64,000 nt of DNA from Syntrophaceae bacterium (GCA_025355345.1 JANXZU010000098.1:960-64959), one strand, 5' to 3'; counted from the stretch's first letter, positions 1,596 through 25,752 are shown. Translations and numbers: made by a program. Notes: a model not told the origin generated them from the letters alone.

Positions 1596-1697
1596 GATAG
1601 TCATTCCCACAAAAAATCACGTCAGCTTTTACAGATTGAACCAACAGACTACTTATGGTATGAAATTTTAACTATCTTAAAGTAGAGGAGTTTAGAT

Positions 1698-2093: not shown

Positions 2094-2122
2094 ACGCATT
2101 TATTATTTTCAGGCAACATAGA

Positions 2123-4570
2123 TTGTCAGGGGAAAAAGAGCAGCAGATGAACTACCAAGACATGAATAAAGAGCAGCTTATCAATGAAATATCCGCCTTA
2201 AAGCAGAAGAATAAGGAACTGGAACATGCTGAATCAGAGTTCAGGCAGACGGAAAAGAAATTGGTAAGCAGCGAAGAAAAATTCCGTACGCTGGCCGAAT
2301 CGAGTTCTTTTGCTATTATGATGCATCAAGGCGATAACTGGATTTACGCGAATCGTGCGGCTGTAGAAATTTCCGGATATACTGAAGAGGAACTCTGCGG
2401 CATGCATTTCTGGTCTTTTGTGCATCCGGATCATCGGGACATGGTAAAGCAAAGCGGCCAAAATCGGCAACAGGGAAAAGCCCTGCCGCGTGCTTATGAA
2501 TTTAAAATCATAGCAAAAGACGGCACGGTAAAATGGGTCAGCCTATCGGGAAGCCCTATCAAATATGAAGATAAACCCACAGCTTTGATTTCAGTTGTAG
2601 ATATCACCGAGAAAAAACTGGTGGATGAGGTGTTGCGCGAGAGCGAGGAACGCTATCGTACCATTCTTGAAGAGATGGAAGACATTTATATTGAAAGTGA
2701 TCTCAAGGGTTTTTTTACTTTTGCAAATCCTGCGAGCTCCAGAATGTTGGGGTTTTCCACAGATGAACTTATTGGCAGGCATTTTACCAAACATACCACC
2801 GTTGCTGATGCTGAAAGAATAATGATTTATTACAAAGAGATTTTCGAAACGGGCATTACCGGGAAACCATTTTCCTGGAATATTGTTAATATAAAGGGGG
2901 AAACTAGAGCCTTTGAAACAGTTGTCTCCTTGATGAAAGACAAAAAGGGTACGCCCCTAGGATTTCGGGCACTCGGACGCGATATCACCGAACGCAAGCG
3001 TATGAATGTGACGCTGAAAGAAAGTGAGCGGAAGTACCGCACTATTTATGAAGATGCTGTTTTCGGTATCTACCAGACGACGCCGGAAGGAAGATTTATT
3101 AGTGCCAATACTTCCTTTGTGCGAATGGCCGGATACGGCTCACCTCAGGAGTTGATTGATAACATAAAGAAAATAGAAACCCAGCTCTATGTGCATTCTG
3201 AAGATCGTCAAAGATTTATCGAGATCATTGCTGAAAAGGGTATTGTTAAAGGTTTTGAAGTTGAATTTTACAAAAAGGATCGAAGTATATTCTGGGTTCA
3301 GCTCAATACCCGTGAGGTGAAGGATCAACAAGGCAGAATAATTTGCTATGAAGGAATCGCGGCAGATATAACTTCCCGCAAGCAGGCGGAGGCCGAAAAG
3401 ATGGTCATGGAGGAACGTCTGAATCGTGCCGAGAAAATGGAGGCCTTGGGAACACTGGCAGGGGGCGTCGCTCACGATCTAAACAATGTGCTGGGTGTTA
3501 TCGTCGGTTATTCGGAACTGCTTTTAAATGAAGTGGATAAGGCAAGCAAAATTCGACCACGTCTGATGAAAATCATGAGCGGAAGTGAGAAGGCCGCCGC
3601 TATTGTGCGGGATTTGCTGACGCTGGCAAGAAGAGGTGTTCCCGGTCGAAAAATTATTAATCTCAACAAGATCATTGCCGATTGTCAACAGTCGCCGGAG
3701 TTTGCTAATTTATCAGTTAATCATCCATCTGTGAAGATAAAAACAGATCTTGCACCGCAACTGCTGAACATCTCCGGCTCTTCTGTACATCTTGAAAAGA
3801 CGCTATATAATCTGATTTCCAATGCCAGTGAGTCCATGGCGAAAGGCGGCATTGTAACCATCAAAACAATCAATCAGTATCTGGACAAGCCAATTCACGG
3901 CTATGACCAGATCCATGAGGGCGACTATGTTATTCTTACCGTAACGGATACAGGTGAAGGCATACCGTCTGTTGATCTGCAACGCATCTTCGAGCCGTTC
4001 TACACGAAGAAGGTTATGGGAAGAAGCGGAACTGGATTAGGCCTGGCGGTTGTCTGGGGTACGGTGAAAGATCATCAAGGTTATATTAACGTTCAAAGCC
4101 AGGAAGGAAAGGGAAGCACATTTACCCTCTATTTCCCTGTAACAAGGGAGGAAATTTCCATTGGAGCCGATTCTTTATCCATTGCCGAATATATGGGGAA
4201 AGGCGAAACCATTCTTGTGGTTGATGATGTGAAAGATCAGCGCGATCTGGCGACTGAAATGTTCAAGAAATTGAATTATAACGTGGTAAGCGTCGCCAGC
4301 GGTGAGGCCGCAATAGCTTACATCAAGGAATGTAAGATTGATCTTATGGTTTTGGATATGATTATGGATCCCGGTATGGATGGACTCGATACATATGTGG
4401 GTGTCCTAGAGATTCAACCAAAACAAAAAGCGATTGTCGTCAGTGGTTTTTCGGAGTCGGACAGGGTACATGCAGCGCAGGCCTTGGGCGCTGGCCAGTA
4501 CGTGGAAAAACCCTATGTCATTGAAAAACTCGGATTGGCTGTGAGAAATGAACTGGACCGGGTTAGATGA
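2123..4570 (+). CDS. PAS-domain hybrid sensor histidine kinase with C-terminal receiver
   Basis: Coiled-coil N-terminus followed by several PAS-like segments. H-box GGVAHDLNNVLGVIVGYSELL, ATPase motifs DTGEGI and GTGLGLAVV, and receiver ILVVDD...DLMVLDMIMDPGMDG are present. The true start may be ATG 2147 or 2162 rather than TTG 2123. Confidence 0.85.
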   Translation: MSGEKEQQMNYQDMNKEQLINEISALKQKNKELEHAESEFRQTEKKLVSSEEKFRTLAESSSFAIMMHQGDNWIYANRAAVEISGYTEEELCGMHFWSFVHPDHRDMVKQSGQNRQQGKALPRAYEFKIIAKDGTVKWVSLSGSPIKYEDKPTALISVVDITEKKLVDEVLRESEERYRTILEEMEDIYIESDLKGFFTFANPASSRMLGFSTDELIGRHFTKHTTVADAERIMIYYKEIFETGITGKPFSWNIVNIKGETRAFETVVSLMKDKKGTPLGFRALGRDITERKRMNVTLKESERKYRTIYEDAVFGIYQTTPEGRFISANTSFVRMAGYGSPQELIDNIKKIETQLYVHSEDRQRFIEIIAEKGIVKGFEVEFYKKDRSIFWVQLNTREVKDQQGRIICYEGIAADITSRKQAEAEKMVMEERLNRAEKMEALGTLAGGVAHDLNNVLGVIVGYSELLLNEVDKASKIRPRLMKIMSGSEKAAAIVRDLLTLARRGVPGRKIINLNKIIADCQQSPEFANLSVNHPSVKIKTDLAPQLLNISGSSVHLEKTLYNLISNASESMAKGGIVTIKTINQYLDKPIHGYDQIHEGDYVILTVTDTGEGIPSVDLQRIFEPFYTKKVMGRSGTGLGLAVVWGTVKDHQGYINVQSQEGKGSTFTLYFPVTREEISIGADSLSIAEYMGKGETILVVDDVKDQRDLATEMFKKLNYNVVSVASGEAAIAYIKECKIDLMVLDMIMDPGMDGLDTYVGVLEIQPKQKAIVVSGFSESDRVHAAQALGAGQYVEKPYVIEKLGLAVRNELDRVR

Positions 4571-4641
4571 ACGTTGTATAACTTAATGACAGCAATAACT
4601 AATTTGGCATTAACTCAACAATTATGGTATAAAACAAAGAT

Positions 4642-5817
4642 ATGAAAGAAACCACAACAAACTCGTTCTTTGCCCTCCGCTGGCCGTTGATAACATTGAT
4701 AATTTTAATGCTGATAATATTTCAGCATCAATCGGCCATGGCCGTTTCTCTTACGGACAGTGCAAGCCCGGTTCCTGCTGCGGCAATGAAACTTGTTGGT
4801 TTCTGCGCTGATCCCAAGGAAGGGCTTGATGCTCAGGCCATAGCTACGCTCGTTGATTATGTCCTCGAGCCTAAATCAAAGAAGGAATCAGATCTTCCAA
4901 AACTCAAAGAAACCCCGGGAGCTTATTATGAATTTGATACCCGGATCAAATTTCCCAGTTTCCTGCAATATTCCTATAGTAAACAAATTCCACCGTCTCT
5001 CACCAGCCCGGCCTCTCTTCGGTATTCAGTATGGACAGACATCCAGGGGGAATCACAAAAAAATACAGGTAGCTGGAAACTGGTCCCGCCAGGCGGCAAG
5101 CCTGTAATCATTCACGGAGTGCAACACGACGGCATTACTCCTGACCAGACCACCGGCGTCTACTATGAATACGATCTAAAAAGAACTTTTATCCTTTTGA
5201 ATTACAAGGGACGGAACGTGTTTATATCGATTTCCAAACAAATCGATATATCCGATATAGGGAAAAAAGGTGTCATTCTAGGCAACGATGATGATTGGAA
5301 TTACTATTATTCCGGTGTGCCCGGATCAACTAAAGCAGGTCTGGGCTGGGTCAAATCTTACATCTACGACTTTTTTGCGGTGGCAATCTATGTCGAATCC
5401 GGCTCTTCTCCATCCATCGTAAGATCGGGCTTTTTCCAATGGATTCGGGCTGGCTGGTCCGGGGTTAATTTTGTTCAAACAAGCCATATAATAAAGGGCA
5501 TGAAACGAAACGCCAAAACTTCAAAATCAATTCTGGAATCGCCAAAATTGCCCGCGCCTAGCCAGATAGCCTCAACTTATCAACGGATTTCGTCCTTGCC
5601 TAAAAATGATTTAGTTGACAGATATACCGCCTTGCAGCAGGCCCGGCAGTCACTGGCCGTTCTGAGCGGCAAAATTGACGCAAACGAAATAAAAAAAACA
5701 GATTCCTATGCCAACACTCCTAAGGTACAAATCGTTGAAGAATTGATGCTGGAATATTTTAAAATTACCATGGGTAAGTCATCCCTGTTAGGGAAAAAAG
5801 TAGTTTTGGGTAATTAA
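4642..5817 (+). CDS. Hypothetical exported or membrane-anchored protein
   Basis: N-terminal hydrophobic segment LITLIILMLIIFQHQSAMA. I recognise no catalytic motif. Confidence 0.5.
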   Translation: MKETTTNSFFALRWPLITLIILMLIIFQHQSAMAVSLTDSASPVPAAAMKLVGFCADPKEGLDAQAIATLVDYVLEPKSKKESDLPKLKETPGAYYEFDTRIKFPSFLQYSYSKQIPPSLTSPASLRYSVWTDIQGESQKNTGSWKLVPPGGKPVIIHGVQHDGITPDQTTGVYYEYDLKRTFILLNYKGRNVFISISKQIDISDIGKKGVILGNDDDWNYYYSGVPGSTKAGLGWVKSYIYDFFAVAIYVESGSSPSIVRSGFFQWIRAGWSGVNFVQTSHIIKGMKRNAKTSKSILESPKLPAPSQIASTYQRISSLPKNDLVDRYTALQQARQSLAVLSGKIDANEIKKTDSYANTPKVQIVEELMLEYFKITMGKSSLLGKKVVLGN

Positions 5818-8120: not shown

Positions 8121-9500
8121 TTGTCGCTAAAGAAAAACACCCTGTGGTCATTTTTTTCTTCTGTAAAACTGACAATTGTTCTTCTGATAATAATCGTGTT
8201 TGTCTTTATTGCCGCCACTTTTATACCTCCTCATATTGTTCAAGCTTTTACCGGGCAGCTTTCACCGGGAGTGGCTGAATTATTTCTTCTCCTTCGTTTG
8301 TCTGATCTTTATCATTCTTTTCTATTCTATTTGCTAATGACCATTCTATCGATCAACCTTATAATCTGTTCCATAAATCGGTTTCCTTCATTATGGAGAC
8401 AATATAAAGCTCCGAATTTTCCGGAACCGGCCGGTATTTTCGATAATCTTCCTCAAAGCCAAATTATTATTGTAGGTAAAGATAGTAGCCAAATCAAGCA
8501 GATCATAAAATCATGTCTGAAAAAAAATTATGGGTCCACCAAAGAAGTTGATACGGGCAAAGGATACCTTTTTTATTCTGAACGGTGTCGTTTTTCTCTT
8601 TTTGGTGTTTACATAGTGCACCTGAGCATTTTAGTGATTATTGTCGGTGCAATTATCGGTTCCATCTTCGGCTTGGAGGCCGATATCAATATCAAAGAAG
8701 GCGAATCTGTTAATGTCGCTAATCTTTCGCAATACAATGCAATACATAAACTGGATTTTTCAGTACGTTGCGATAAATTTATCATTGAATATTATGAAGA
8801 CGGCACTCCCAAAACTTACCGATCCGATTTGAGCTTTATAAAAAACGGTCAAGTTGCGAAGCAGGGAACTCTGCTGGTTAACAATCCCCTAACCTTTGAT
8901 AATTATCGCTTTTACCAGTCCAGATATGGCACAGCGCCCGATATCAAGGCGATAGTCACATACACAAATATCGGCAAGAAGGGCGGTTCTTTGACGCTTG
9001 CTGTGGGTGATAGCTTTGATTTGCCGGATAGTAACGCAAAGGGTTCTGTCCTGCGTATGGAAAATAATATTATGCAAATGGGGCCGGCAATAAAGTTAAG
9101 AATCATTTCACCAAAAAAGGATATACAATTCTGGGTTTTTAAGCATATCGATAAAATCAAAAAAATGAATTCCAACCTATTAACTGAAGTTCCTATGTTC
9201 AATCCCGGCCTTTTCCATCCCTTTGTTTTTTCTATCGACCGGATGGAGCAAACTTACTATACAGGTTTGCATATTGTTCGCGATCCCGGTGTTTCTCTTG
9301 TTGCTTTGGGTGGATTACTTATGGTCGCAGGTTTAATAATCGTCTTTTTCATGGCGTATCAGCGTTTTTGGGTGAGGTTGGAACAGCTAGGAACAAAAAA
9401 CATCATCAGCATTGTTGGTCTGAGCAATCGGAATGACCAGCAACTTCAAGATAAAATCGATTGTTTGTGCAGGCGAATCCAAGAGGAGATAAAAGCATGA
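8121..9500 (+). CDS. resB: Cytochrome c biogenesis protein ResB/Ccs1 (System II)
   Basis: TTG start 8 nt after 'aaggag'. N-terminus LWSFFSSVKLTIVLL, TM helices flanking a large soluble loop, and a C-terminal TM helix. The stop overlaps the ccsA start (ATGA). Confidence 0.8.
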   Translation: MSLKKNTLWSFFSSVKLTIVLLIIIVFVFIAATFIPPHIVQAFTGQLSPGVAELFLLLRLSDLYHSFLFYLLMTILSINLIICSINRFPSLWRQYKAPNFPEPAGIFDNLPQSQIIIVGKDSSQIKQIIKSCLKKNYGSTKEVDTGKGYLFYSERCRFSLFGVYIVHLSILVIIVGAIIGSIFGLEADINIKEGESVNVANLSQYNAIHKLDFSVRCDKFIIEYYEDGTPKTYRSDLSFIKNGQVAKQGTLLVNNPLTFDNYRFYQSRYGTAPDIKAIVTYTNIGKKGGSLTLAVGDSFDLPDSNAKGSVLRMENNIMQMGPAIKLRIISPKKDIQFWVFKHIDKIKKMNSNLLTEVPMFNPGLFHPFVFSIDRMEQTYYTGLHIVRDPGVSLVALGGLLMVAGLIIVFFMAYQRFWVRLEQLGTKNIISIVGLSNRNDQQLQDKIDCLCRRIQEEIKA

Positions 9501-10345
9501 GCCACACATTGATTCTAAGCGGGGTGACTTTTGTCTATTTTGTTTCGTTTGTCTTATACCTGTTCGGGTTGATTAACGGGAAAGAATTTTGGGGGCGCGC
9601 CGCTTCATTTTTCGCGTGGGCAGGATTAGCCATGCAAACAATTGCCCTAATCTTAAGATGGAAGATGTCTTACGATCTGGGCTTGGGACATGTGCCCTTG
9701 ACCAATTTCTATGAATCCATGGTCTTCTTCGCTTGGGCCATTATTTTTACTTATCTGATTGTTGAATTGCTGACGAAAAATAAGATTATTGGTGTATTCG
9801 TCGTACCAATAGCATTCCTAGCAATGGCCTATTCATCAATCGCGCCAGATGTGAGTAATCGCATCGAACCGCTTATCCCCGCCTTGCAAAGCAACTGGCT
9901 GACTATTCACGTAGTAACCTGTTTTATGGGTTATGCCGCCTTTACAGTAGCTTTTGGTTGTGGTTTAATCTATCTGCTGAAAAATATGGAAAAAGGTAAC
10001 ACGGAAAAACCTTCTGGATTACGAGGAAAACTCCCTGCTCTGGCAATACTGGATACATTAATTTACCAGAGCACTGCTCTTGGGTTTGTCTTTCTCACCA
10101 TCGGAATAATGACAGGTTCCATTTGGGCGCATTACGCCTGGGGTAGTTACTGGAGTTGGGACCCCAAAGAGACATGGTCGCTGATTACCTGGCTTATCTA
10201 CGCAATCATGTTGCATTTGCGGCACGTGCGAGGGTTGAAGGGAAAGCGCATGGCTATCCTTGCTCTTGTCGGATTTGCCTGTGTTCTATTCACCTATCTT
10301 GGCGTTAATTATCTTCCCGGCTTACACAGCTATCTCAAGACATAA
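9497..10345 (+). CDS. ccsA: Cytochrome c biogenesis protein CcsA (System II heme handling)
   Basis: Trp-rich motif WAHYAWGSYWSWDPKETW in a polytopic membrane protein. ATG 9497 (MSHTLIL) overlaps the resB stop; the track start 9461 would overlap resB by 40 nt. Confidence 0.9.
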   Translation: MSHTLILSGVTFVYFVSFVLYLFGLINGKEFWGRAASFFAWAGLAMQTIALILRWKMSYDLGLGHVPLTNFYESMVFFAWAIIFTYLIVELLTKNKIIGVFVVPIAFLAMAYSSIAPDVSNRIEPLIPALQSNWLTIHVVTCFMGYAAFTVAFGCGLIYLLKNMEKGNTEKPSGLRGKLPALAILDTLIYQSTALGFVFLTIGIMTGSIWAHYAWGSYWSWDPKETWSLITWLIYAIMLHLRHVRGLKGKRMAILALVGFACVLFTYLGVNYLPGLHSYLKT

Positions 10346-15360: not shown

Positions 15361-17973
15361 TCAGTTGGCGCGAGTCTGCTTTGAGTACCATTGCAGCTGC
15401 TGGGCGCTGCTCTCTTCATCCACATTTTCCTGGGCAATTATTTTTTCACCTTGTGCCTGTGGCAATACCTCTTTGAGCTTCCAGGTCTTATCCATGCGGC
15501 CGAATGTCCAGTATTCCTCAAATGGGGATACATACTGCTGCTGGCTTAGAACAACTGTGTCTTTGCGAACAACTTTCTGGGCATGGGCGCTGATGTGGAC
15601 GGTGAACTCGTCTTTTGCCGGGTCGGCATAGTTTCTAATCAGAATTAATTCCGCCTTGCGCACGCAAAGATTGCGGTATTCAGTTGCCATATCTTCCATA
15701 TGCCATTTTTTCATCTGATTGCTCAAGCTTTCGGCAACATCCGGGAATAAGTCCGCCGCCGGTACAGCAGCCGGATCATTTCCTTCCCTTGCCAGGTAAA
15801 CGGTCAGAAATACATTACGTGCCCGCTCCAGCATCAGCTTGCGATTCCAGAGTTTATCAGTCTGCACAAGGAAGTTTAAAATTCGGTCAATGCGCGTTGC
15901 CTTTTGCTGTGTTGATTTTTCCAGCCAGGGGCCTGCGTGACCTTCTTTTGATGCTGCATCATCGTAAATTCCTTTAATTGTCTGGTCGGTCAGCATTTCG
16001 ACAAAATTATCATCCTTGAGGATATCCGATTCACCTGACTGTTCGATCTCGCGCAGCAGCCAGTGATCCCCTAAACGCTGAAATGTCCAGAACTCCTGAA
16101 ACTGCGAGGAGCTGTTGTCCCCCCTCAAGAATTTATTGGTGCGGTCGTCAATATAGTAATCACGGGCGGAAGCAGTAATGAGCGCGGTAAACTCTCGCTG
16201 GTCAGGCTTTTCTGTGTAACGGACATTGACGAGGTCCACTTGTTTGACCTTGAGCTCATCTAGTTTATTGATCTCGTTGTTCCGGATCAGCCCTTGCAGT
16301 TGTGCCGAATGCTGGGCATAGAGGTCAGCCATCAGCAGGGTCTTTATGGGCGCGTAATTCCGTTTTTGCCAGCATTCCTGAAGCTTAAGAAATGTCTCTT
16401 CGGTAAGCTTACGCAATTCCTTCGGCGATAGTGATAAATCCTGTTTGCTGATAAAATCAAGAAGCTTTTCGGTCTTGAGTGATTTTTTAGTGATTTCTGG
16501 CCGACTGTAGGAATAGTCTAAATTCTCTTCTTTGCCCGGTTTCTTTCTGATGGCAATAATAATAATTGTTCCGAAAACCCCAAGAAATATAATCCAGCCA
16601 AATATTTCATCCGAGGAAGAACCGCTCCCTGAACCGGAGCTTCTTGATCCGGACCGTCCAAAACCTCCACCACCCTTGTTATGTACAACAAAATCATCCG
16701 CGAGAAACGTATGTGGTTGGTTTACGCTGAGGTTATAGACCAGCTCTTTTCCATTGCTCTGCGATGTTCCCAGAACTGTGGCCGGAATCAGGATGCCATT
16801 ATCCCGGAAAAATATTCTATCGTCGGGACGAAGCCTGCCTGCTTCAAGAAATGTTCCGTCAGCTAATCCCACCGGATGTTCAGTGGTTGTTCGCAACTCA
16901 CCCAAGGTTGTTTTAACCGATAATACATGGCTGCGTGTGGCGAATAGTTTTTCCACACGGGTACTGATAATATGCCCCTCCCGATCAACGGCCTGTACTG
17001 TATCGTTTGCGGAAAGTTTTTCTATAGGGATATGTCCCGCAGGTGTGCCAATTATGGTGCCGGCAGGAAAACATCCACCACCACCTTTGTTATGGACAGC
17101 AAGACCTGCAGCAAAGAATGTGTTGGGCTGATCGGTTTGGAGATTAAAGACACGTACTCGCTTAGAAATTTTCTGTAAAGAAACTATACGCTGCCCTGAA
17201 AGTGCATGACCATCCCAGGCGAAAATTGTATCACCAGTTTTCAGGATATCAAGCGTCTTGAAAGTGCCGCGCCCCGTATAGAATGGGTGTTCCTCAGTTA
17301 CCGCAAGTGTGTTCCGGTCGGTCTTGAGCAGAATGTACTCGTCCACTTTATGACTAATAACTTCTTTAACTTTTGTATGGACAATTTTCCCTTCCGTTGA
17401 ATAAGACAATAATGTATCCCCGTGCCGCACCGCACTGATCATAATTTTTGTGCCATCCGCTTTTAAAATTGCACTATCCGGGAGAAAACATCCCTTGTTG
17501 TGAACAACGATATTAGCGGGAAGAAACGTTCCGCCGGGGACGACAAGCAAATTATAAGCAGGCTGGTTGGATTGAATTTGTCGAACAGATTTGATGGGAA
17601 CGGCATTAATGATGCCTTCTTGAATTTGATAAACATTATCTCCAGGTTTAAGAAATCGCGCGATACGGAATTCGCCAGGGGCAACCATTATCGGATGCTC
17701 CGGTGTAATTAAAAATTTGTTTTCGCCTGTGGAAATTTCCAGATAACCATCAGGGTGAACTTCAGTCAGCACTTGTACGGTGCCTGTTTGCAACTTGCCT
17801 GCGGCGATGCTCCAGACCGGATCGCCCACGCGGAGCTTATCAATGGCGATTGCGCCAGAGGGCGTCATTACCAGTGTCCCCTTTGCGAGGCAACCGCCGC
17901 CGCCGCGCGCAAAAGCAGGAGAAGAAATAAAAATAAACAGCAATATAAACGCCGCAACAGCGCATCTTTTCAT
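15361..17973 (-). CDS. Membrane protein: signal peptide, three tandem Hint (intein-like) domains, one TM helix, two C-terminal Tim44-like domains
   Basis: The likely start is ATG 17973 (MKRCAVAAFILLFIFISSPAFA), rather than the track start 18060, which would overlap the DUF350 gene. See the Hint domain features below. TM helix IFGWIIFLGVFGTIIIIAI is followed by RKKPGK. Two Tim44-like segments end in ..FQEFWTFQRLGDHWLLREIEQ and ..FEEYWTFGRMDKTWKLKEVLP. Confidence 0.8.
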   Translation of the reverse strand: MKRCAVAAFILLFIFISSPAFARGGGGCLAKGTLVMTPSGAIAIDKLRVGDPVWSIAAGKLQTGTVQVLTEVHPDGYLEISTGENKFLITPEHPIMVAPGEFRIARFLKPGDNVYQIQEGIINAVPIKSVRQIQSNQPAYNLLVVPGGTFLPANIVVHNKGCFLPDSAILKADGTKIMISAVRHGDTLLSYSTEGKIVHTKVKEVISHKVDEYILLKTDRNTLAVTEEHPFYTGRGTFKTLDILKTGDTIFAWDGHALSGQRIVSLQKISKRVRVFNLQTDQPNTFFAAGLAVHNKGGGGCFPAGTIIGTPAGHIPIEKLSANDTVQAVDREGHIISTRVEKLFATRSHVLSVKTTLGELRTTTEHPVGLADGTFLEAGRLRPDDRIFFRDNGILIPATVLGTSQSNGKELVYNLSVNQPHTFLADDFVVHNKGGGGFGRSGSRSSGSGSGSSSDEIFGWIIFLGVFGTIIIIAIRKKPGKEENLDYSYSRPEITKKSLKTEKLLDFISKQDLSLSPKELRKLTEETFLKLQECWQKRNYAPIKTLLMADLYAQHSAQLQGLIRNNEINKLDELKVKQVDLVNVRYTEKPDQREFTALITASARDYYIDDRTNKFLRGDNSSSQFQEFWTFQRLGDHWLLREIEQSGESDILKDDNFVEMLTDQTIKGIYDDAASKEGHAGPWLEKSTQQKATRIDRILNFLVQTDKLWNRKLMLERARNVFLTVYLAREGNDPAAVPAADLFPDVAESLSNQMKKWHMEDMATEYRNLCVRKAELILIRNYADPAKDEFTVHISAHAQKVVRKDTVVLSQQQYVSPFEEYWTFGRMDKTWKLKEVLPQAQGEKIIAQENVDEESSAQQLQWYSKQTRAN
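16678..17073 (-). other. Hint/intein-like domain 3
   Basis: Begins CFPAGT, contains TTEHP, and ends FVVHN followed by KGGGGFGRSGSRSSGSGSG. Confidence 0.7.
17089..17490 (-). other. Hint/intein-like domain 2
   Basis: Begins CFLPDS, contains VTEEHP, and ends LAVHN followed by KGGGG. Confidence 0.7.
17497..17892 (-). other. Hint/intein-like domain 1
   Basis: Begins CLAKGT immediately after RGGGG, contains ITPEHP (block-B-like TxxH), and ends IVVHN followed by KG. Confidence 0.7.
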
Positions 17974-18016
17974 ATATCTGTTCCTCAATATTTGTCTGAA
18001 ATCAAATCGATATCGC

Positions 18017-18286
18017 CTAATGAAGCGCCGCCAATATCCCGCCCAGCACGGCGGCAGCAATTACTATACTCATTCCGATAATGCATGCTCCAACTATTCT
18101 TCCGAAGTATTCCGCGACTGCGGTGTTGCCCCGGATTATTTCTTTCTCCTCATCAATGTTGGGGGTCAACCTATCCATCAGTTTAGGCACTAGGGCGGAG
18201 CTAACCAGCACAAGAATCATACCGAACAAACCGCCGATCAGTGAAAAGACTATGGACCATCCGATATTGCTTATTGTTTCTGTCAT
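18017..18286 (-). CDS. DUF350 small membrane protein
   Basis: Internal ATG 18286 (MTETISNIGW...) gives an 89-aa protein with two TM segments and the DUF350-type EIIRGNTAVA motif. The longer track ORF would run through the LemA stop. Confidence 0.7.
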   Translation of the reverse strand: MTETISNIGWSIVFSLIGGLFGMILVLVSSALVPKLMDRLTPNIDEEKEIIRGNTAVAEYFGRIVGACIIGMSIVIAAAVLGGILAALH

Positions 18287-18338: not shown

Positions 18339-18902
18339 TTATAATTTAACCTGCGGAGTTTCACGTTCTCCGGCCTTTTCCAGTTGAAAGAATGGTTCAA
18401 TCCTAAAGTTGAACATACCGGCAACCAGGTTGCCGGGAAAAGTTTGAACGCGATTATTATAGCGTAGAGTAATATCATTGTAATACTGGCGGGCAAATCC
18501 GATTTTATTTTCAGTCGCCGCTAATTCTGTCTGCAAGGCAATAAAACTTTCATTGGCTTTAAGGTTCGGGTATGCTTCGGATAGCGCGAAGAGAGAGCGC
18601 AAAGAACCGCTTAAAGCGTTTTCCGCTTTTGCCCGCGCTTCTAATGATCCAGAAGATGCTATTGCCTCCTGCCGCGCCTTTATCACGGTATCCAATGTCT
18701 GTCGTTCGTGAGCAGCATAGCCTTTGACGGTCTCTATAAAATTGGGAATCAGATCATGCCGCCTTTTTAGCTGCACATCAATAGCGCACCAGGCATTTTT
18801 TACTTCATTGCGGCCGCGGACGAGGTGATTATAAAGGTTGATGACAAAGATGCCAACGGCAGTTAGAGCAATTAAACAAATAAGGATTATTAACATTTTC
18901 AC
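18339..18902 (-). CDS. lemA: LemA family membrane protein
   Basis: N-terminal TM helix followed by NEVKNAWCAIDVQLKRRHDLIPNFIETVKGYAAHE, typical of LemA. Confidence 0.85.
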   Translation of the reverse strand: MKMLIILICLIALTAVGIFVINLYNHLVRGRNEVKNAWCAIDVQLKRRHDLIPNFIETVKGYAAHERQTLDTVIKARQEAIASSGSLEARAKAENALSGSLRSLFALSEAYPNLKANESFIALQTELAATENKIGFARQYYNDITLRYNNRVQTFPGNLVAGMFNFRIEPFFQLEKAGERETPQVKL

Positions 18903-18937
18903 TCCTGCTCAAATAACGGACAAGATTTATAGTAAGA

Positions 18938-18967
18938 TTGTAATACAAAAGATAATTTTGTGTCAAC
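18938..18967 (-). promoter_or_regulatory. Sigma70-like promoter candidate for the lemA operon
   Basis: The minus strand reads TTGACA (18967-18962), 18 nt, TACAAT (18943-18938), about 35 nt upstream of ATG 18902. Confidence 0.45.
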
Positions 18968-20100: not shown

Positions 20101-20140
20101 AAACCCATGTGTCTTTAGCGGATACATGGGTTTTGTTATT
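20101..20140 (+). terminator. Terminator- or attenuator-like hairpin immediately upstream of the RBS at 20148
   Basis: 10-bp stem AAACCCATGT/ACATGGGTTT with a 13-nt loop, followed by the T-rich stretch TGTTATTTT. Confidence 0.5.
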
Positions 20141-20161
20141 TTAAAAAAGGAGAGTGAAAGA

Positions 20162-21355
20162 ATGAAAAAAATGTATATGTTATTAGCGGCAGTATTATTC
20201 ATGGCTATTACTGGTTGCGGTAGTGGGGGGGGTGGTGCCGTACCGCCTGCGTTATCATCGGAGAAGGCTATAACCGCGTTTGACTTTGCCGCACTTCCGG
20301 CAAATGGCACCGTTACGGAAGCAGCGCATACCATTGCGGTAACAGTGCCGTTTGGCACGGACGTAACTGCTCTTATCCCGACAATCACCATTTCTGTCGG
20401 TGCAAGCATCAGCCCTGATACAGGCGTGGCCAATAACTTTACCACGCCTCAGACATACACAGTTACAGCTGAAGATACTACGACACAGGAATATACTGTG
20501 ACTGTGACGATAGCATCCGGTGATTACACCTCCGCCTACATCGGCACATTAAAACATGTTCCTGCCGGAAGCTTCCAGCGGGATGGCGCAACTGCCAGCA
20601 TCAGCACAGTAGCAACAGCATTCCGCATGAGCCAGTACGAGATCACCAGAGCACAGTTTCTTGCAGTAATGGGAACTGATCCCAGCGATACAACTATTTC
20701 CATGGGGCTCAATGATCCGGTACAACAGGCAAACTGGTACCATGCCATCGCCTTCTGTAACAAACTGAGCATTGCTGAAGGCCTGACGCCTGTGTACAGT
20801 GTAGCTGGCGTTAACTTTACGACCTTGACGTATGGGGACATTCCTACCAGCAGTGATGCGGCCTGGAATGCCGCTAGCGCCAACTGGGCTGCCAATGGTT
20901 ATCGCCTGCCGACAGAGATGGAATGGATGTGGGCGGCTATGGGCGCAACCAGTGACCGTTCCAATGGATATACCGGAACAGGCACAAACACTACAGGCTA
21001 TACAAAAGGCTATGCCGGCAGCACAGAAACAGGCGGCACGCAGGTAAATATTGATGATTATGCCTGGACATGGGAAAACGCCACTTCAACTCACCAGGTA
21101 GGCACAGCGGGACATCCTAATGAACTAGGCCTTTATGACATAAGCGGTAATGTTTGGGAGTGGGTTTGGGACAGGAATGGCGCCTATCCCGCGGGAACAC
21201 AGACCGACTATAGGGGAGCGGCTTCGGGCACGGACCGTGTCGTCCGCGGCGGCAGTTGGAACTACTTTGCGTCTTTCGCCTCGGTTGTTTTTCGTAACCA
21301 CTTCCTCCCGAGTGACGTGCACGAAGGTATCGGTTTCCGGGTTGTGCGCCCCTGA
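20162..21355 (+). CDS. Lipoprotein with C-terminal formylglycine-generating-enzyme (SUMF1/FGE-sulfatase) domain
   Basis: Start at ATG 20162 after 'aaggagag'. Lipobox LFMAITGC followed by a Gly run, then an Ig-like N-terminal domain. FGE-type motifs GYRLPTEMEWMWAA, YDISGNVWEWVWD and RVVRGGSW...GFRVVRP. Confidence 0.8.
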   Translation: MKKMYMLLAAVLFMAITGCGSGGGGAVPPALSSEKAITAFDFAALPANGTVTEAAHTIAVTVPFGTDVTALIPTITISVGASISPDTGVANNFTTPQTYTVTAEDTTTQEYTVTVTIASGDYTSAYIGTLKHVPAGSFQRDGATASISTVATAFRMSQYEITRAQFLAVMGTDPSDTTISMGLNDPVQQANWYHAIAFCNKLSIAEGLTPVYSVAGVNFTTLTYGDIPTSSDAAWNAASANWAANGYRLPTEMEWMWAAMGATSDRSNGYTGTGTNTTGYTKGYAGSTETGGTQVNIDDYAWTWENATSTHQVGTAGHPNELGLYDISGNVWEWVWDRNGAYPAGTQTDYRGAASGTDRVVRGGSWNYFASFASVVFRNHFLPSDVHEGIGFRVVRP

Positions 21356-21621: not shown

Positions 21622-22233
21622 ATGAACAAGATTCTTATCCTTTTTGCTCATCCGCGTTTTGAGAAATCAAAAACTAACCGCGCGTTGCTCCATAATGTCG
21701 AGCAGCGTCAAGGTGTAACTTTAAACGATTTGTATGAGCAATATCCGGATTTCAATATCGATGTTGATCGTGAAAAAGAACTGCTTACTTCCCATCAGAT
21801 TATTATCTGGCATCATCCTTTATATATGTACAGCGCTCCCGCTCTGCTCAAACAGTGGATTGATCTGGTGCTGGAATATGGCTGGGCGCATGGTAAAGAC
21901 GGTAATTTTCTTAAAAGTAAAATTATCTTTAATGTTATAACTACGGGCGGAACCAGAGAGGTTTATGCTCTCGGCGGTTACAATCGTTACACTATTAAAG
22001 AGTTCTTATTTCCTTTTGAGCAAACAGCAACTTTGTGTAAAATGGTTTATTTGCCGCCTTTTGCTGTGCAGGGGACGCATTTGCTGACTGACGAGAAGCT
22101 GAAAGATCATGTGACAATGTATCACACCCTTTTAGAAAAAATGATTGCGGGTGATTTTGATATCGAAGCAATGAAGAAAGTTGAATTTCTTAACGACTGG
22201 CTTTTATCGGGAACAGGACTTATAAAACCATGA
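21622..22233 (+). CDS. kefG: Glutathione-regulated K+ efflux ancillary protein (quinone-reductase-like, flavodoxin fold)
   Basis: LILFAHP...DLYEQYPDFNIDVDREKELL...HPLYMYSAPALLKQWID closely parallels my recollection of E. coli KefG. The stop overlaps the next gene's start (ATGA). Confidence 0.8.
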   Translation: MNKILILFAHPRFEKSKTNRALLHNVEQRQGVTLNDLYEQYPDFNIDVDREKELLTSHQIIIWHHPLYMYSAPALLKQWIDLVLEYGWAHGKDGNFLKSKIIFNVITTGGTREVYALGGYNRYTIKEFLFPFEQTATLCKMVYLPPFAVQGTHLLTDEKLKDHVTMYHTLLEKMIAGDFDIEAMKKVEFLNDWLLSGTGLIKP

Positions 22234-24113
22234 GCAATGTTTTTTTACATGACGCATTAATCTATCTGGCGGCCGCTGTGCTCTTTGTTCCTATTGCCAA
22301 AAAACTGGGAATGGGATCTGTATTGGGATATCTAATGGGCGGAATAATTATCGGTCCTTTTTTTCTTAATTTTATCGGTCAGGAAGGAAAGGACATTATG
22401 CATTTTGCCGAATTCGGCGTGGTGATGATGCTGTTCCTCATTGGATTGGAACTGGAGCCTTCCCACTTCTGGCGCATGCGCAATCTCATTTTGGGAACAG
22501 GTTCCGTGCAGCTGGGCGCAACAACGATACTTGTTTTTGCGGTTTTTCTGTTTGTCGGATTTAGCTGGCAGGCGGCACTGGCTTGCGGTCTGGCCATGGC
22601 CATGTCGTCTACCGCCATTGTCATGCAGACGCTGCGGGAAAAAGGTTTAACCAGGACAGAATCGGGAAAGAGTTCCTTCGCCGTACTTCTTTTTCAGGAT
22701 ATCGCCGTCATTCCTATTTTAGCGCTGCTGCCGCTCTTAGCTATTTCCGCTGTTCACGCGTCGGGTGCCGGAGCGATCACGCTTATTTCAGGGCAACCCG
22801 GTTGGGTGCAAACTTTAACAGTGCTGGGCGCGGTGGGGGTAGTAATATTGAGTGGGCGCTTTGTGATTGTTCCCTTTCTGCGCTTCATTGCACGGATTCA
22901 TTTGCGGGAATTGTTTACGGCGGCGGCTCTGTTGATCATCATCGGTACTGCCTCTATCATGATGCTTGTGGGTTTGAGTCCCGCATTGGGGACGTTTCTT
23001 GCAGGAGTAGTGCTGGCCAACAGTGAATTCCGGCATGAACTGGAAAGTGATATCGAACCGTTTAAGGGAATTCTGCTCGGTTTGTTTTTTATTTCTGTGG
23101 GCGCCTCGATTAACTTTAGTTTGATTGTCGATAACCCGTTGAAAATAGCTGCCCTGGTCTGCAGCATCATCGTGATCAAGGCGAGCGTGCTGTTTTTTAC
23201 CGGCAAACTTGTACGGCTCAGTTTTGATCAAAATCTTTTATTTACTTTGGGGTTGGCGCAGGTTGGCGAATTTGCCTTTGTTCTCTTTGCCTTCATTTCT
23301 CAACTCAATATTCTGCCTGTCCGGCAGACTGATATGATGATGGGTGTTACAGCGATCAGCATGACGGTAACGCCTTTGCTTCTGCTAATTAATGAGAGAT
23401 TTATTGAGCCGCGTTGCGGTACAAAGGCCAAAGAAGAAAAAGAAGCTGATGAAATTGATGTTTCCAACCTTGTGATAATTGCGGGGTTCGGTCATTTTGG
23501 TTCTACTCTTGGCCGGTTTTTACGAGCAAATGGAATTTCCGCTACAATTCTGGATAATGATTCTGATCGCGTAGATCTTTTAAGAAAAATGGGGTTTAAA
23601 GTTTTCTATGGTGACGCGACGCGCATTGATATCCTGAAATCAGCCGGGGCCGATGAAGCCAGAATTTTGATTGCCGCGATTGATTCACCAGAGACTAATT
23701 ACGATCTGGTTGAAAAAACGAAAAAATTGTTTCCCAACCTTACAATCATGGTGCGTGCCAAAAGTCGTCTGGATGCCTATGAACTAATCGATATGGGAGT
23801 AAAAGATATCTATCGGGAATCACTAGATACATCAGTAAGACTGGGCATTGATGTTCTTACCAAACTGGGTATACGCAAGTACGCTGCCACTCGTGCCGGC
23901 CAGAACTTTATCAAGTACGATGAAACGGCTCTGGATCAGCTTGCCTCGCACAGGCATGATCAGGATACATATATTTTCAACAGCCGCGAGCAGATTCAAC
24001 TCCAGGAACAACTATTAACTAACGACAGAGAGGTTAACCCAACTCTTCATGATCATGCCTGGGATAGTGACCAAATGGCCAATGAATATGAAGGCGATGG
24101 TTCGAAATACTGA
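22230..24113 (+). CDS. kefB: Glutathione-regulated K+/H+ antiporter (CPA2 family with KTN/TrkA-N domain)
   Basis: About 12 TM helices followed by the Rossmann motif IIAGFGHFG and a KTN domain. It is translationally coupled to kefG. Confidence 0.85.
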   Translation: MSNVFLHDALIYLAAAVLFVPIAKKLGMGSVLGYLMGGIIIGPFFLNFIGQEGKDIMHFAEFGVVMMLFLIGLELEPSHFWRMRNLILGTGSVQLGATTILVFAVFLFVGFSWQAALACGLAMAMSSTAIVMQTLREKGLTRTESGKSSFAVLLFQDIAVIPILALLPLLAISAVHASGAGAITLISGQPGWVQTLTVLGAVGVVILSGRFVIVPFLRFIARIHLRELFTAAALLIIIGTASIMMLVGLSPALGTFLAGVVLANSEFRHELESDIEPFKGILLGLFFISVGASINFSLIVDNPLKIAALVCSIIVIKASVLFFTGKLVRLSFDQNLLFTLGLAQVGEFAFVLFAFISQLNILPVRQTDMMMGVTAISMTVTPLLLLINERFIEPRCGTKAKEEKEADEIDVSNLVIIAGFGHFGSTLGRFLRANGISATILDNDSDRVDLLRKMGFKVFYGDATRIDILKSAGADEARILIAAIDSPETNYDLVEKTKKLFPNLTIMVRAKSRLDAYELIDMGVKDIYRESLDTSVRLGIDVLTKLGIRKYAATRAGQNFIKYDETALDQLASHRHDQDTYIFNSREQIQLQEQLLTNDREVNPTLHDHAWDSDQMANEYEGDGSKY

Positions 24114-24780: not shown

Positions 24781-25752
24781 TTACTTTGTGGCGCGTCTGA
24801 AATCATAAAACCAGTCAGCCTTCATATGATTTTCATGTTGCTCTCCGTAAAGATAGGTCTCATAATTTTTGTCGCCATCCAGATAAAACTTCATCCAGGA
24901 GGTTATATATACTTTGGCGTGCATTTGATTGACTGGGTCACCAGAATTGATCCAATCCGTATGGGGAAAGTTTTTGAAATAAGCGAGCGCCTTCTCGAAA
25001 GAAAAATCTTTGTACATACTGACAACTTTGCCCGGAGGCGAGTTATCATCGTTTCTGCCGGCGTAACATATTGTTGCCGATTTAATATCGTCCAGATCGT
25101 AACCTGAGTCCATATAGGGAGCCAATGCCTGAGTGGACTTCACTTCCGAACCTAAATTGGTTGCGGCGAGTAACGCTCCGCCTCCGCCCTTACCGTAGCC
25201 CATGAGTTGGAGTTTGTTAATATCGACAAGACCTTTAATTTTGCTATCGCTGCGGATATTTTCGGTTTTGAGCATCGCGATACCGGCTTTATGGGCATCT
25301 GTCCATAGCGGAGTATTGCCCATGACATCTGTAGGCGTCATGGCAAAGATGATATATCCGTGGGTGACAAGGTGGTAGGCAAGCCACCTTATGTCGTCAT
25401 GAGAATTAAAAAAGCCGGACATCAAAGTTGTTGCGGCAAATGGACCCTTGGCCGTTTCACACGGGTACCACACTTCCGCTGCTAAGTAAGCTGGATTGGG
25501 GGGTGGTTTGTAGGAACATCTGGTAAACGCGCCCTTCAGTGCTGGATCAACTGTGACAGGCAAAGTTACGGCAGGGGCAGTTGCAGCAGGAGTAGCTGCT
25601 GTAGGCACGTCTGTAGCAGGTACAGCAGCAGGAATGGTTGCGGCAGGCACAGTTTTGACAGGTTCCGCTGCGGTTGCATATGCCCCTGCAAAAAGCATAG
25701 TCAGAATACCTAATAAAGCCAATGCTCTAGGAAATAATTTTTTTTCTTTCAT
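24781..25752 (-). CDS. Secreted alpha/beta-hydrolase of the dienelactone hydrolase/cutinase (PETase-like) type with Gly at the nucleophile position
   Basis: Signal peptide and a Pro/Ala/Thr-rich linker. By eye it is colinear with cutinase/PETase blocks (VWYP.., HGYIIFAM, LMGYGKGGGG, RNDD, PH..). The nucleophile elbow reads G-Y-G-K-G instead of G-x-S-x-G. Confidence 0.65.
   Translation of the reverse strand: MKEKKLFPRALALLGILTMLFAGAYATAAEPVKTVPAATIPAAVPATDVPTAATPAATAPAVTLPVTVDPALKGAFTRCSYKPPPNPAYLAAEVWYPCETAKGPFAATTLMSGFFNSHDDIRWLAYHLVTHGYIIFAMTPTDVMGNTPLWTDAHKAGIAMLKTENIRSDSKIKGLVDINKLQLMGYGKGGGGALLAATNLGSEVKSTQALAPYMDSGYDLDDIKSATICYAGRNDDNSPPGKVVSMYKDFSFEKALAYFKNFPHTDWINSGDPVNQMHAKVYITSWMKFYLDGDKNYETYLYGEQHENHMKADWFYDFRRATK

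Follow-up and report, generated by a model that had tools for sequence, protein, structure and literature searches.

The gene described here lies on the minus strand of DNA from a Syntrophaceae bacterium and was analyzed within a window of 64,000 nucleotides (i.e., the whole stretch of DNA under study). It encodes 870 amino acids plus a stop codon, and the genes upstream of it encode a DUF350-like membrane protein and a LemA-family protein (Table 1). Read from an upstream TTG, the open reading frame (ORF) covers 15361..18060; the ATG at 17973, with GAGGAA 5' of it, is a plausible start, and residues are counted from it here (numbers in the initial annotation, counted from the TTG, are higher by 29). 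Nearly every related locus, whatever its phylum, has a DUF350 homolog directly upstream; the one in this genome has two hydrophobic helices according to hydropathy. The lemA gene occupies an upstream position only in Syntrophales-type loci (L001-L006, L018, L020, L040, and L063).

TABLE 1 Features of the Hint array gene and of the region upstream of it (aa, amino acids of the 870-aa protein)
Feature	Position	Strand	Basis
Promoter-like site TTGACA-18-TACAAT (11/12), upstream of lemA; candidate operon promoter	18937..18966	-	Consensus match only
LemA-family gene, first gene of putative operon	18339..18902	-	Pfam LemA E 1.4e-56
DUF350-like small two-helix membrane protein, 89 aa from ATG 18286	18017..18286	-	Pfam DUF350 E 7e-5, below gathering
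Whole gene: signal peptide, RGGGG, 3 Hint modules, Gly/Ser tail, TM helix, 2 Tim44-like domains	15361..17973	-	
Predicted Sec-type signal peptide MKRCAVAAFILLFIFISSPAFA, aa 1-22, ends A-F-A	17908..17973	-	Sequence and hydropathy
RGGGG, aa 23-27, N-flank of module 1	17893..17907	-	Sequence
Hint module 1, C28-N159, 132 aa, type T1, C28...IVVHN159	17497..17892	-	Profiles, family HMM
Linker Lys160-Gly161, modules 1/2	17491..17496	-	Sequence
Hint module 2, C162-N295, 134 aa, type T2, C162...LAVHN295	17089..17490	-	Profile and PDB sequence matches
Linker KGGGG, aa 296-300, modules 2/3	17074..17088	-	Sequence
Hint module 3, C301-N432, 132 aa, type T3, C301...FVVHN432	16678..17073	-	Profiles, family HMM, AF2
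Predicted extracytoplasmic Gly/Ser-rich tail KGGGGFGRSGSRSSGSGSGSSSD, aa 433-455	16609..16677	-	Sequence
Predicted TM helix, aa ~456-475, then RKKPGK (positive-inside)	16549..16608	-	Hydropathy; AF2 helix 459-473
Tim44-like domain 1, aa ~507-645	16039..16455	-	PF04280 best stretch 507-645; Foldseek Tim44 2cw9, 3qk9
Tim44-like domain 2, aa ~688-838, boundaries approximate	15460..15912	-	Second PF04280 stretch; AF2

Profiles, sequence matches to solved bacterial intein-like (BIL) domains, and the predicted fold support the identification of the three modules as Hint domains. Against Pfam, the whole protein matched PT-HINT (E 4.9e-21), Hint (3.4e-17), Hint_2 (6e-15), and Intein_splicing (1.6e-14), all of which, together with Vint, scored above gathering; its NCBIfam matches were TIGR01445 intein_Nterm (2e-12) and TIGR01443 intein_Cterm (1e-5). 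PF07591 PT-HINT was the best-scoring Hint family (75.9 bits for the whole protein; gathering, 27.7). Each module obtained Hint-family matches when searched alone; for PF07591, module 2 scored above gathering (40.9 bits, E 3e-10), and modules 1 and 3 scored just below it (26.3 and 23.1 bits). Module 2 also matched the PDB entries 6y75 (E 2.4e-5) and 2lwy (E 1.3e-4) by sequence. The full-length AF2 model was moderately confident (mean pLDDT of 63; ~60-90 within the modules, highest in module 3). By predicted fold, the best Foldseek matches were Tetrahymena BUBL BIL2, mini-inteins, and the Clostridium thermocellum BIL, with E values (Hedgehog included) of 3e-10 to 1e-6. TM-scores normalized to the target were about 0.76-0.88 for BIL2 (6tmm/6y75), the Npu and Ssp DnaB inteins, the BIL 2lwy, and Hedgehog (1at0).

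The initial annotation had proposed, from the sequence alone, three tandem Hint/BIL modules at 16678-17892, and this proposal was borne out. Profile matches far above chance, PDB sequence matches, and Foldseek matches to Hint folds agreed, and the span runs exactly from Cys28 to Asn432. All of the motifs on which it drew are present (CLAKGT, CFLPDS, and CFPAGT; TPEHP, TEEHP, and TTEHP; and VHN followed by K). They correspond to the N-terminal nucleophile (C28, C162, and C301), to block B (TPEH, TEEH, and TTEH), and to an intein block G-like His-Asn terminus (VHN159, VHN295, and VHN432), and each of the three modules has Lys at +1 instead of Cys, Ser, or Thr. Homing endonucleases are absent from the modules, for which 132-134 aa leave no room. 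Type A BIL domains are defined by an N-terminal Cys (or Ser) nucleophile, a block B TxxH, a C-terminal His-Asn, and a nonnucleophilic +1 residue (PMC4031507). The modules were confirmed to carry every tested sequence feature of this type, and autoprocessing is predicted. A recent tandem duplication, which the initial annotation had also discounted, was ruled out: the modules are 27-33% identical to one another (BLASTP E 1e-16 to 1e-18), they represent three old orthologous types, and no DNA repeat was found beyond a 15-nt Gly-codon linker. Within the 64,000-nt window, the family HMM matched this ORF only, and no other Hint gene was found.

The C-terminal half consists of two Tim44-fold domains. 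The whole protein matched PF04280 in two stretches (E 5e-22), and Foldseek, applied to an AF2 model of the C-terminal part (pLDDT of 80.6), gave human Tim44 (2cw9, E 4.5e-6) as the best match, with yeast Tim44 (3qk9/2fxt), mitoribosomal chain d, and the NTF2-like domains of ARC6/PARC6 as further matches. The helices-plus-sheet pattern is repeated in the AF2 secondary structure of domain 2, in agreement with the two Tim44-like domains originally annotated. A PDB sequence search with this half gave nothing significant, whereas the fold search gave Tim44; NF033779 scored 44 bits, below its cutoff of 80.

The protein contains only two hydrophobic segments by hydropathy, and the TM helix is preceded by acidic and followed by basic residues. 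This pattern supports a topology, already suggested in the initial annotation, in which the Hint modules are predicted to lie outside the cytoplasm and the Tim44 domains inside it. Cys28 was also considered as a lipoprotein cysteine. This reading was rejected, as R-G-G-G-G precedes the residue without a lipobox (L-[AS]-[GA]-C), and it is also opposed by the family-conserved AxA-type signal peptidase I site located 3 to 5 residues upstream.

The architecture is not peculiar to this genome. Although described correctly from a single sequence, it belongs to a large, old family, with hundreds of homologs carrying 1, 2, 3, 4, or 6 modules in at least eight phyla, including Thermodesulfobacteriota, Nitrospirota, Planctomycetota, Verrucomicrobiota, and relatives. 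The module types are arranged in patterns such as 2, 12, 123, 1233, and 121212. We evaluated conservation across 229 proteins, whose 642 HMM-defined modules included 614 unique ones. Cys1 and the terminal His-Asn were present in 100% of the modules, the block B Thr in 99.8%, and the block B His in 99.5%; 524 of the 642 modules contained a single Cys. The flanking positions, which lie outside the HMM that defined the modules, were equally constrained: Gly at -1 in 99.7%, and Lys at +1 and Gly at +2 in 100%. Thus, the Lys-Gly pair that had been noted after each module of this protein is invariant in all 642 modules. Such invariance is specific to the family, since the flanks of canonical PT-HINT domains vary (K, K, N, N, T, and Q at -1 and C, S, T, A, D, and S at +1 in six of them).

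The surroundings of the array are similarly constant. Of the 198 homologs with a complete N terminus, 180 have RGGGG immediately before the first module, and small residues are kept at -3 and -1 of the signal peptide end (SWA, AWA, AFA, ALA, and others). The linker between T1 and T2 was KG in 181 of 183 cases, and those between T2 and T3 consist of K and then 1 to 7 Gly. No cargo was found between modules, where linkers comprise only K plus 1 to 7 Gly; with no payload there, any action of the modules would fall on the tail itself. Equivalents of the Gly/Ser tail follow the last module in all of the loci compared. In the protein under study, N432 is followed by KGGGGFGRSGSRSSGSGSGSSS and then by the hydrophobic helix. 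Purifying selection constrains the modules and the host domains to a similar extent, with dN/dS values of 0.13 for modules and 0.11 for the Tim44 region (comparison against L001) and cross-phylum identities of 39-55% and 47-60%, respectively. Our search of the literature on Hint/BIL domains (BIL work being covered via reviews), polymorphic toxins, DUF350, and LemA/COG4395 with Tim44 did not find this architecture; the family is widespread and undescribed in the literature found.

Comparison with Hint-less Tim44-like relatives, proposed earlier as a check, located the array. In P0195 (ALA/RGVGFSGRYGSRHTS; the slash marks the signal peptidase site), P0203 (TYA/RGGGGGGTGGGGGGGFGGGYSGS), P0201, and P0218, the tail runs uninterrupted from the signal peptide to the TM helix, and one continuous A/RGG...Gly/Ser stretch forms the whole ectodomain; the array therefore sits inside a Gly-rich linker. 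P0195 has a DUF350 gene upstream, and P0203 is without a DUF350 neighbor. Two other Hint-less members, P0158 and P0146, have a TM anchor only, and their gene neighborhoods are uninformative, so that the contexts of the Hint-less relatives are mixed. The description of the array as an insertion holds in that the linker is contiguous in these relatives; it does not hold in a recent sense, as the segment is conserved under purifying selection, and "insert" applies only in a deep evolutionary sense. The low-complexity linker site fits type A BIL domains, for which the conservation of both the host family and the array across phyla is atypical. Modules are still present in about 80% of those family members that are complete. 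Hint-bearing and Hint-less members were interleaved in a crude UPGMA ordering of the Tim44 region, which is not a proper phylogeny, and repeated loss or gain of modules is tentatively suggested.

The analysis showed the nature and fold of the domains, the topology signals, the conservation and distribution of the family, and the position in the linker; processing as such, its order, the ligation step, and the biological purpose are inferred. Each module probably excises itself after export, possibly rejoining its flanks on the invariant Lys. The product of the gene would be an inner membrane protein with two cytoplasmic Tim44-fold (NTF2-like, membrane-associating) domains and an extracytoplasmic tail bearing three modules of the type A BIL class in series. 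Sec export would be followed by signal peptidase cleavage after A-F-A and by the folding of each module. The Gly(-1)-Cys1 peptide bond would then be converted to a thioester with the assistance of the block B Thr and His, and the Asn-Lys(+1) bond would be broken by Asn cyclization, with the penultimate His assisting, to excise the module. What remains would be a short Gly-rich tail, the TM helix, and the two Tim44 domains, as made directly by Hint-less relatives.

In the variant of self-excision that we prefer, the upstream Gly carbonyl would be passed to an amine of the +1 Lys, rejoining the flanks. The acceptor may be the Lys alpha-amine after Asn cyclization, as proposed for type A BILs, or the epsilon-amine, yielding an isopeptide, as reported for Tetrahymena BIL2 (PMC8616854). 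Type A BILs are reported to cleave, and to be able to splice without a +1 nucleophile via a free amine (PMC4031507); those studied are described as giving mostly cleavage products, not ligation (PMC4031507, PMC7664689). As the module and the upstream piece would be untethered after Asn cyclization, alpha-amine ligation in the periplasm would compete with hydrolysis. The epsilon-amine route would have to contend with the weak nucleophilicity of this Lys group at neutral pH. The invariance of Lys and Gly could instead serve Asn cyclization, folding, or recognition by another enzyme. Self-excision also leaves unexplained the presence of 1 to 6 copies and any advantage over Hint-less relatives.

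The same G/C...HN/K-G junctions might, although we consider this unlikely, define a Hint subfamily for lysine-directed extracytoplasmic ligation, with either the +1 Lys epsilon-amine or a lysine or other amine in trans (e.g., on peptidoglycan or a partner protein) as the acceptor. This would yield either a Gly/Lys tail with isopeptide branches or a covalent anchor in the envelope, with as many ligation events as there are modules (1-6). In bacteria, such a system would parallel, without a need for ATP, the ubiquitin-like conjugation reported for Tetrahymena BIL2.

A trans-conjugation in the manner of Hedgehog or BUBL seems distinctly improbable. Here, an external nucleophile (e.g., a peptidoglycan or lipid amine or a Lys of another envelope protein) would resolve the Gly-Cys thioesters and couple the upstream piece (RGGGG or the modules before it, together with their K-Gly tails) covalently to an envelope component. 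The array would then be a multishot ligation device that works outside the cytoplasm without ATP. Conjugation of the Ubl domain that lies upstream to lysines in other proteins is reported for BIL2 (PMC8616854), the closest relative with a solved structure, and the Hedgehog Hint domain attaches cholesterol through the same G/CF thioester (PMC5874633). Gly at -1 of 99.7% of the thioesters resembles ubiquitin-type C termini, and the modules are predicted to be located where ATP is absent. However, module 1 would pass on a mere five-residue peptide, and the modules are minimal (132-134 aa), with no Ubl domains and no adduct recognition region comparable to the sterol recognition region of Hedgehog. 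The conserved C-terminal His-Asn implies a C-terminal cleavage needless for Hedgehog-type transfer, and an invariant acceptor-like Lys is already available in cis at +1.

It is similarly improbable that the modules are persistent selfish elements resembling mini-inteins, without host function and excised harmlessly from a tolerant linker, and conserved only because an inactive copy would disable the host protein. Their location where Hint-less relatives are contiguous, the changes in copy number by duplication and loss, the interleaving of Hint-bearing and Hint-less members in the crude clustering, and a catalytic residue set exactly suited to clean self-removal would all fit. Yet no homing endonuclease or sign of mobility was found, the three types are vertically conserved across at least eight phyla, and purifying selection covers the modules in their entirety, at a strength equal to that on the host domains. 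In-frame deletion from a Gly-rich linker should be tolerated and loss should be easy, whereas modules persist in most members. Inteins, moreover, are usually found at conserved sites within essential proteins, with Cys, Ser, or Thr at +1.

A noncatalytic ectodomain, in which the Hint folds would serve as a periplasmic structural or binding domain and never be cleaved, is very improbable. Some natural Hint-fold domains have lost their activity, and conservation here extends over the full length of the modules, beyond the active site; nevertheless, a structural domain would not be expected to keep all of the catalytic residues of both junctions and their flanks (nearly) invariant in 642 modules. 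A polymorphic toxin context, in which the modules would release a C-terminal toxin as implied by the NCBI name, by the best score of PF07591 among Hint families, and by the polymorphic toxins that contain the nearest nonfamily Hint domains found in plasmids, is effectively refuted by the architecture, i.e., a conserved TM helix and two predicted cytoplasmic Tim44-fold domains downstream in place of a variable toxin tip, flanks unlike those of canonical PT-HINT domains, and neighbors (lemA, DUF350, and housekeeping genes) that include no immunity-like or secretion genes.

Hint domains drive the splicing of proteins, the lipidation of Hedgehog, and the release of toxins, and they are major tools of protein engineering. 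The present family offers a natural, ancient, and widespread case in which minimal Hint modules are stacked 1 to 6 deep without cargo, are predicted to be exported, and are flanked by an invariant Lys-Gly (+1/+2) and a near-invariant Gly (-1). It is a testable system for BIL-type thioester resolution without a Cys, Ser, or Thr acceptor and for the question of lysine-directed (isopeptide) splicing in bacteria, which, if it occurs, would offer a new ligation chemistry at Gly-Lys junctions. The family also defines a conserved membrane module of DUF350 and double Tim44. The database name "polymorphic toxin-type HINT domain-containing protein" is misleading for hundreds of these proteins and is corrected here.

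Among known systems, Hedgehog/Hog is matched (1at0) at the fold level only; the modules here end in His-Asn followed by K-Gly linkers and have no sterol recognition region. Mini-inteins (Npu/Ssp DnaB and Mtu RecA) share the fold (TM of 0.81-0.86), the N- and C-terminal catalytic residues, and an excision that would restore a contiguous host sequence. Unlike mini-inteins, the modules have Lys instead of Cys, Ser, or Thr at +1, which makes the canonical branched (thio)ester intermediate impossible, and they occur in tandem, predicted to be exported, at a host site that is a linker of low complexity and not a conserved active-site motif. They thus fall outside class 1 inteins, with Lys at +1, a Gly-rich linker site, no endonuclease, and vertically conserved types. 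PT-HINT domains (PF07591; Zhang, Aravind, and coworkers) have the same CF(L/P)xGT start and VHN end; their flanks are variable, and the array has no downstream toxin domain, immunity gene, or polymorphism. Tetrahymena BUBL (Dassa, Yanai & Pietrokovski 2004) provides the best PDB match in both sequence and structure (BIL2, 6tmm/6y75), despite an identity of only ~21-22%. It also has several BIL modules in series per polypeptide, an upstream flank ending in Gly, and a Lys amine reported as the acceptor of an isopeptide (PMC8616854). BUBL proteins are, however, eukaryotic and cytoplasmic, and their BILs alternate with ubiquitin-like cargo domains, in contrast to a bacterial, predicted extracytoplasmic array without cargo domains. 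Type A BILs (Amitai et al. 2003; Dassa et al. 2004) share a minimal Hint fold of ~130-140 aa without an endonuclease, Cys1, the block B TxxH, a C-terminal His-Asn, and the lack of Cys, Ser, or Thr at +1; C. thermocellum BIL4 (2lwy) is similar in sequence (E 1.3e-4) and fold (TM of 0.85). Placement in a nonconserved extracytoplasmic linker of a bacterial protein would be a further similarity, although the array and its host family are conserved across phyla. Type A BILs are scattered in hypervariable proteins, whereas the modules described here form arrays of 1 to 6 with only K-Gly(n) between them, keep an invariant Lys(+1) and Gly(+2) and a near-invariant Gly(-1), and occupy a fixed position just after the signal peptidase site (A/RGGGG) in one vertically conserved host family, the DUF350-partnered double-Tim44 proteins.

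The mechanical open reading frame of the Hint-Tim44 gene (15361..18060, minus strand) begins at a TTG codon at 18060; its stretch from 18060 to 18017 lies over the end of the upstream DUF350 gene (minus strand). The true start is most likely the ATG at 17973, with GAGGAA in front of it as ribosome-binding site, which yields an 870-aa product with a classical N-terminal signal peptide. Because the start was set at this ATG, residue numbers in the initial annotation are 29 above those used here; its nucleotide coordinates, 16678-17892, correspond exactly to Cys28 to Asn432, and each motif that it quoted was found in the protein. On the basis of the two hydrophobic segments in the whole protein, the second with acidic charge on its N-side and basic charge on its C-side, the modules are predicted to be extracytoplasmic and the C-terminal half cytoplasmic.

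Features of the window protein (870-aa numbering) and tails of Hint-less relatives (P-handles, related proteins from the family searches)
Feature	Position (aa)	Strand	Sequence or remark
Signal peptide	1-22	minus	ends A-F-A
RGGGG	23-27	minus
Module 1	C28-N159	minus	then Lys-Gly
Module 2	C162-N295	minus	then KGGGG
Module 3	C301-N432	minus
Tail after module 3		minus	KGGGGFGRSGSRSSGSGSGSSS
Hydrophobic helix	~456-475	minus	RKKPGK directly after
C-terminal remainder after RKKPGK		minus	~390 residues
Tail of P0195			ALA/RGVGFSGRYGSRHTS
Tail of P0203			TYA/RGGGGGGTGGGGGGGFGGGYSGS
Tail of P0201			ACA/RGGLLSSDSGSSGS
Tail of P0218			CFA/RGGSYDGGGGSGFSS

The proposal that the insert comprises three Hint domains of the bacterial intein-like (BIL) kind was borne out by profiles, PDB sequence matches, and predicted fold, which agree. 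The whole protein matched PT-HINT (4.9e-21), Hint (3.4e-17), Hint_2 (6e-15), Intein_splicing (1.6e-14), Vint (1e-9), and Tim44 (5e-22) in Pfam, as well as the N-terminal (2e-12) and C-terminal (1e-5) intein splicing regions in NCBIfam, and each module matched Hint families when searched separately. The modules are 27 to 33% identical to one another (E values of 1e-16 to 1e-18), with no DNA-level repeat among them except the Gly-codon linker. Module 2 matched the sequences of Tetrahymena BIL2 (6y75/6tmm; E value, 2.4e-5) and a Clostridium thermocellum BIL (2lwy; 1.3e-4). In the AlphaFold2 model of the whole protein (mean pLDDT, 63; modules mostly 60 to 90), BIL2 was again the top PDB match by Foldseek (3e-10); the Ssp and Npu DnaB mini-inteins, 2lwy, the Mtu RecA intein, and Hedgehog 1at0 were also among the top matches, and target-normalized TM-scores for these Hint structures were 0.76 to 0.88. 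Type A BILs are defined by an intein-like C-terminal His-Asn and the lack of a +1 nucleophile (PMC4031507). All type A sequence features were found, and by every sequence criterion examined the modules are classed as type A BIL domains.

A sequence search of the C-terminal half against the PDB gave no significant match. Its model (residues 477 to 870; pLDDT, 80.6) has two repeats, each with helices packed against a curved sheet, and the best Foldseek matches were human Tim44 (2cw9; E value, 4.5e-6) and yeast Tim44 (3qk9 and 2fxt), followed by mitoribosomal chain d and further NTF2-like membrane-proximal domains.

A HMMER scan of the C-terminal 438 residues against 1.84 billion representatives gave 1,535 matches. 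A minority of the complete relatives carry no Hint modules and have a single unbroken tail from the signal peptide to the transmembrane (TM) helix. Deleting the modules from the window protein conceptually leaves AFA/RGGGG^KG^KGGGG^KGGGGFGRSGSRSS..., a tail of the same kind, and this resemblance supports the earlier suggestion that the array is inserted in a Gly-rich linker. The DUF350 neighbor is present at P0195 and absent at P0203. Members with Hint modules are found throughout the family, even where identity in the Tim44 region falls to ~30%, and a crude clustering of that region (not a proper phylogeny) mixes them with Hint-less members. This pattern suggests an ancient Hint-Tim44 association followed by losses and/or gains. 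Two Hint-less proteins differ in other ways. In P0123, a close relative (489 aa; Tim44 region, 59% identical), several Gly-rich hydrophobic helices replace the signal peptide and tail; a small membrane protein may have been fused on or have taken the place of the usual N terminus. The TM-anchored P0158 has a different partner gene: upstream lies a 427-aa (or 132-aa) protein lacking Pfam matches (related loci L051, 304-1587, and L050/L052, upstream ORFs), not DUF350.

Of 933 matches among 5.8 billion proteins searched, the best 120 all combined Hint and Tim44, at lengths of about 870, 1,010, or 1,270 aa. Databases carry family proteins under generic or misleading names. The one-genome-per-species scan yielded 48 loci, from Syntrophaceae/Smithella, Nitrospirota, Sedimentisphaerales/Phycisphaerae/Planctomycetia, Verrucomicrobiota, Lentisphaerae/Victivallales, Kiritimatiellota, Myxococcales, and Thermoanaerobaculales. 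The family HMM found one to six modules per protein, which sort into three orthologous types; the window array is 1-2-3. The patterns included 123 (95 proteins), 1233 (55), 2 alone (19), 12 (18), and 121212 (2), and these types and counts indicate that the window array consists of three ancient paralogues and that copy number is altered by duplication and loss. The metagenomic proteins P0032 (1,264 aa) and P0076 (1,286 aa) carry six modules in strict 1-2-1-2-1-2 alternation, which implies that a two-module unit was duplicated, not single modules. At L030, a locus in a Proteobacteria MAG (ORF 1-4953), the frame of a single-module homologue stays open for ~1,260 residues upstream to the contig end, either as a much longer N-terminal extension or as a chance ORF in GC-rich DNA.

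Junctions were compared across 642 HMM-defined modules of full length, 614 of them distinct in sequence, with the flanks lying outside the HMM. Cys1 and the terminal His-Asn were invariant, and the block B Thr and His were present in 99.8% and 99.5%, respectively; 524 of the 642 modules have a single cysteine. Flanking residues were Gly at -1 (99.7%), Lys at +1 (100%), and Gly at +2 (100%). Linkers between modules consist of Lys and one to seven Gly residues and nothing else, that between types 1 and 2 being KG in 181 of 183 cases. RGGGG precedes the first module in 180 of 198 complete proteins and comes directly after a site whose -3 and -1 residues are small (SWA, AWA, AFA, and ALA, among others). 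As a control, the nearest nonfamily plasmid matches were used: six canonical pretoxin-HINT domains from polymorphic toxins, which vary at both -1 (K, K, N, N, T, and Q) and +1 (C, S, T, A, D, and S). Judged against this small sample (n = 6), the Gly and Lys-Gly flanks appear to be a family signature and not a general Hint property.

Relative to a Syntrophaceae orthologue (L001; 82% identical), dN/dS was 0.15, 0.11, and 0.14 for modules 1 to 3 (0.13 overall) and 0.11 for the Tim44 region, and cross-phylum identity was 39 to 55% for the modules versus 47 to 60% for the Tim44 region. These values argue that constraint on the modules extends over their full length and is nearly as strong as that on the host domains.

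A gene for a DUF350-like 89-aa two-helix membrane protein lies directly upstream in nearly every locus with sequence there, in all phyla; a LemA gene before it is confined to Syntrophales-type loci, and a strong promoter-like site was found upstream of the window's lemA. The LemA-family protein (18339-18902, minus strand) has a weak match to the magnetosome family MamQ of NCBIfam (76 bits; cutoff, 250), which reflects common LemA ancestry. The wider neighbors (ResB/CcsB, an enolase-superfamily enzyme, flavoproteins, and a KefC-like exchanger) are those of an ordinary chromosome. Among them are adjoining ResB-like and CcsB-type genes of system II cytochrome c biogenesis (8121-10345, plus strand) and a flavodoxin-like (KefF-type) gene overlapping the start of a Na/H-exchanger and TrkA-N protein (21622-24113, plus strand); the latter two genes resemble a glutathione-gated K+ efflux pair of the KefF/KefC kind. 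The window also encodes a lipoprotein-like FGE-sulfatase (SUMF1-type) domain protein with a DUF5018 N-domain (20126-21355, plus strand) and a PET-hydrolase-like alpha/beta hydrolase (24781-25752, minus strand; PF12740; E value, 5e-24).

Sequence and structure prediction thus describe exported minimal Hint modules, with no cargo between them, within a tail that relatives have module-less. The amino acids needed for the two reactions at the junctions (a thioester forms at Gly-Cys, and Asn cyclizes at Asn-Lys) are intact. Following export and signal peptide removal, each module would most likely excise itself, leaving a protein of Gly-rich tail, TM helix, and two Tim44 domains as the partner of DUF350. 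We favor rejoining of the flanks onto the +1 Lys over mere cutting, because an absolutely invariant residue beside the scissile bond, where linker length is otherwise free, would most simply have a chemical role. Ligation via a free amine has been proposed for type A BILs (PMC4031507), and a Lys-epsilon isopeptide was reported for BIL2, the closest solved relative (PMC8616854). Attack by the epsilon-amine ahead of Asn cyclization would prevent loss of the cleaved module by periplasmic diffusion. Against rejoining, lysine is a weak nucleophile at neutral pH, and the BILs studied so far chiefly cleave (PMC4031507 and PMC7664689).

Hedgehog- or BUBL-like transfer to an external acceptor is an unlikely alternative to rejoining on lysine. 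That the modules are functionless self-removing elements is likewise improbable: the mechanism would be compatible with excision and rejoining, but long retention in a deletion-tolerant linker and constraint on whole modules fit such elements poorly. A noncatalytic ectodomain is very unlikely given the invariant catalytic residues, and the polymorphic toxin of the database name, contradicted by architecture and gene context, can practically be dismissed.

The modules differ from canonical inteins in lacking a +1 nucleophile and in being sited in a linker, and the protein differs from functional pretoxin-HINTs in lacking a toxin domain. Unlike BUBL arrays, the array has no Ubl cargo; unlike Hog domains, the modules end in His-Asn and have no adduct-recognition region. 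Each of these four identities was ruled out by these features. The domain type is already known; literature searches on Hint/BIL, DUF350, polymorphic toxins, and LemA/COG4395 with Tim44 found nothing on this architecture. As far as that literature shows, what is new is a cargo-less tandem array at a fixed extracytoplasmic site after the signal-peptidase site, with invariant G/C...HN/KG junctions and a conserved DUF350/double-Tim44 host, and it raises the concrete, testable question of lysine-directed Hint chemistry in bacteria.
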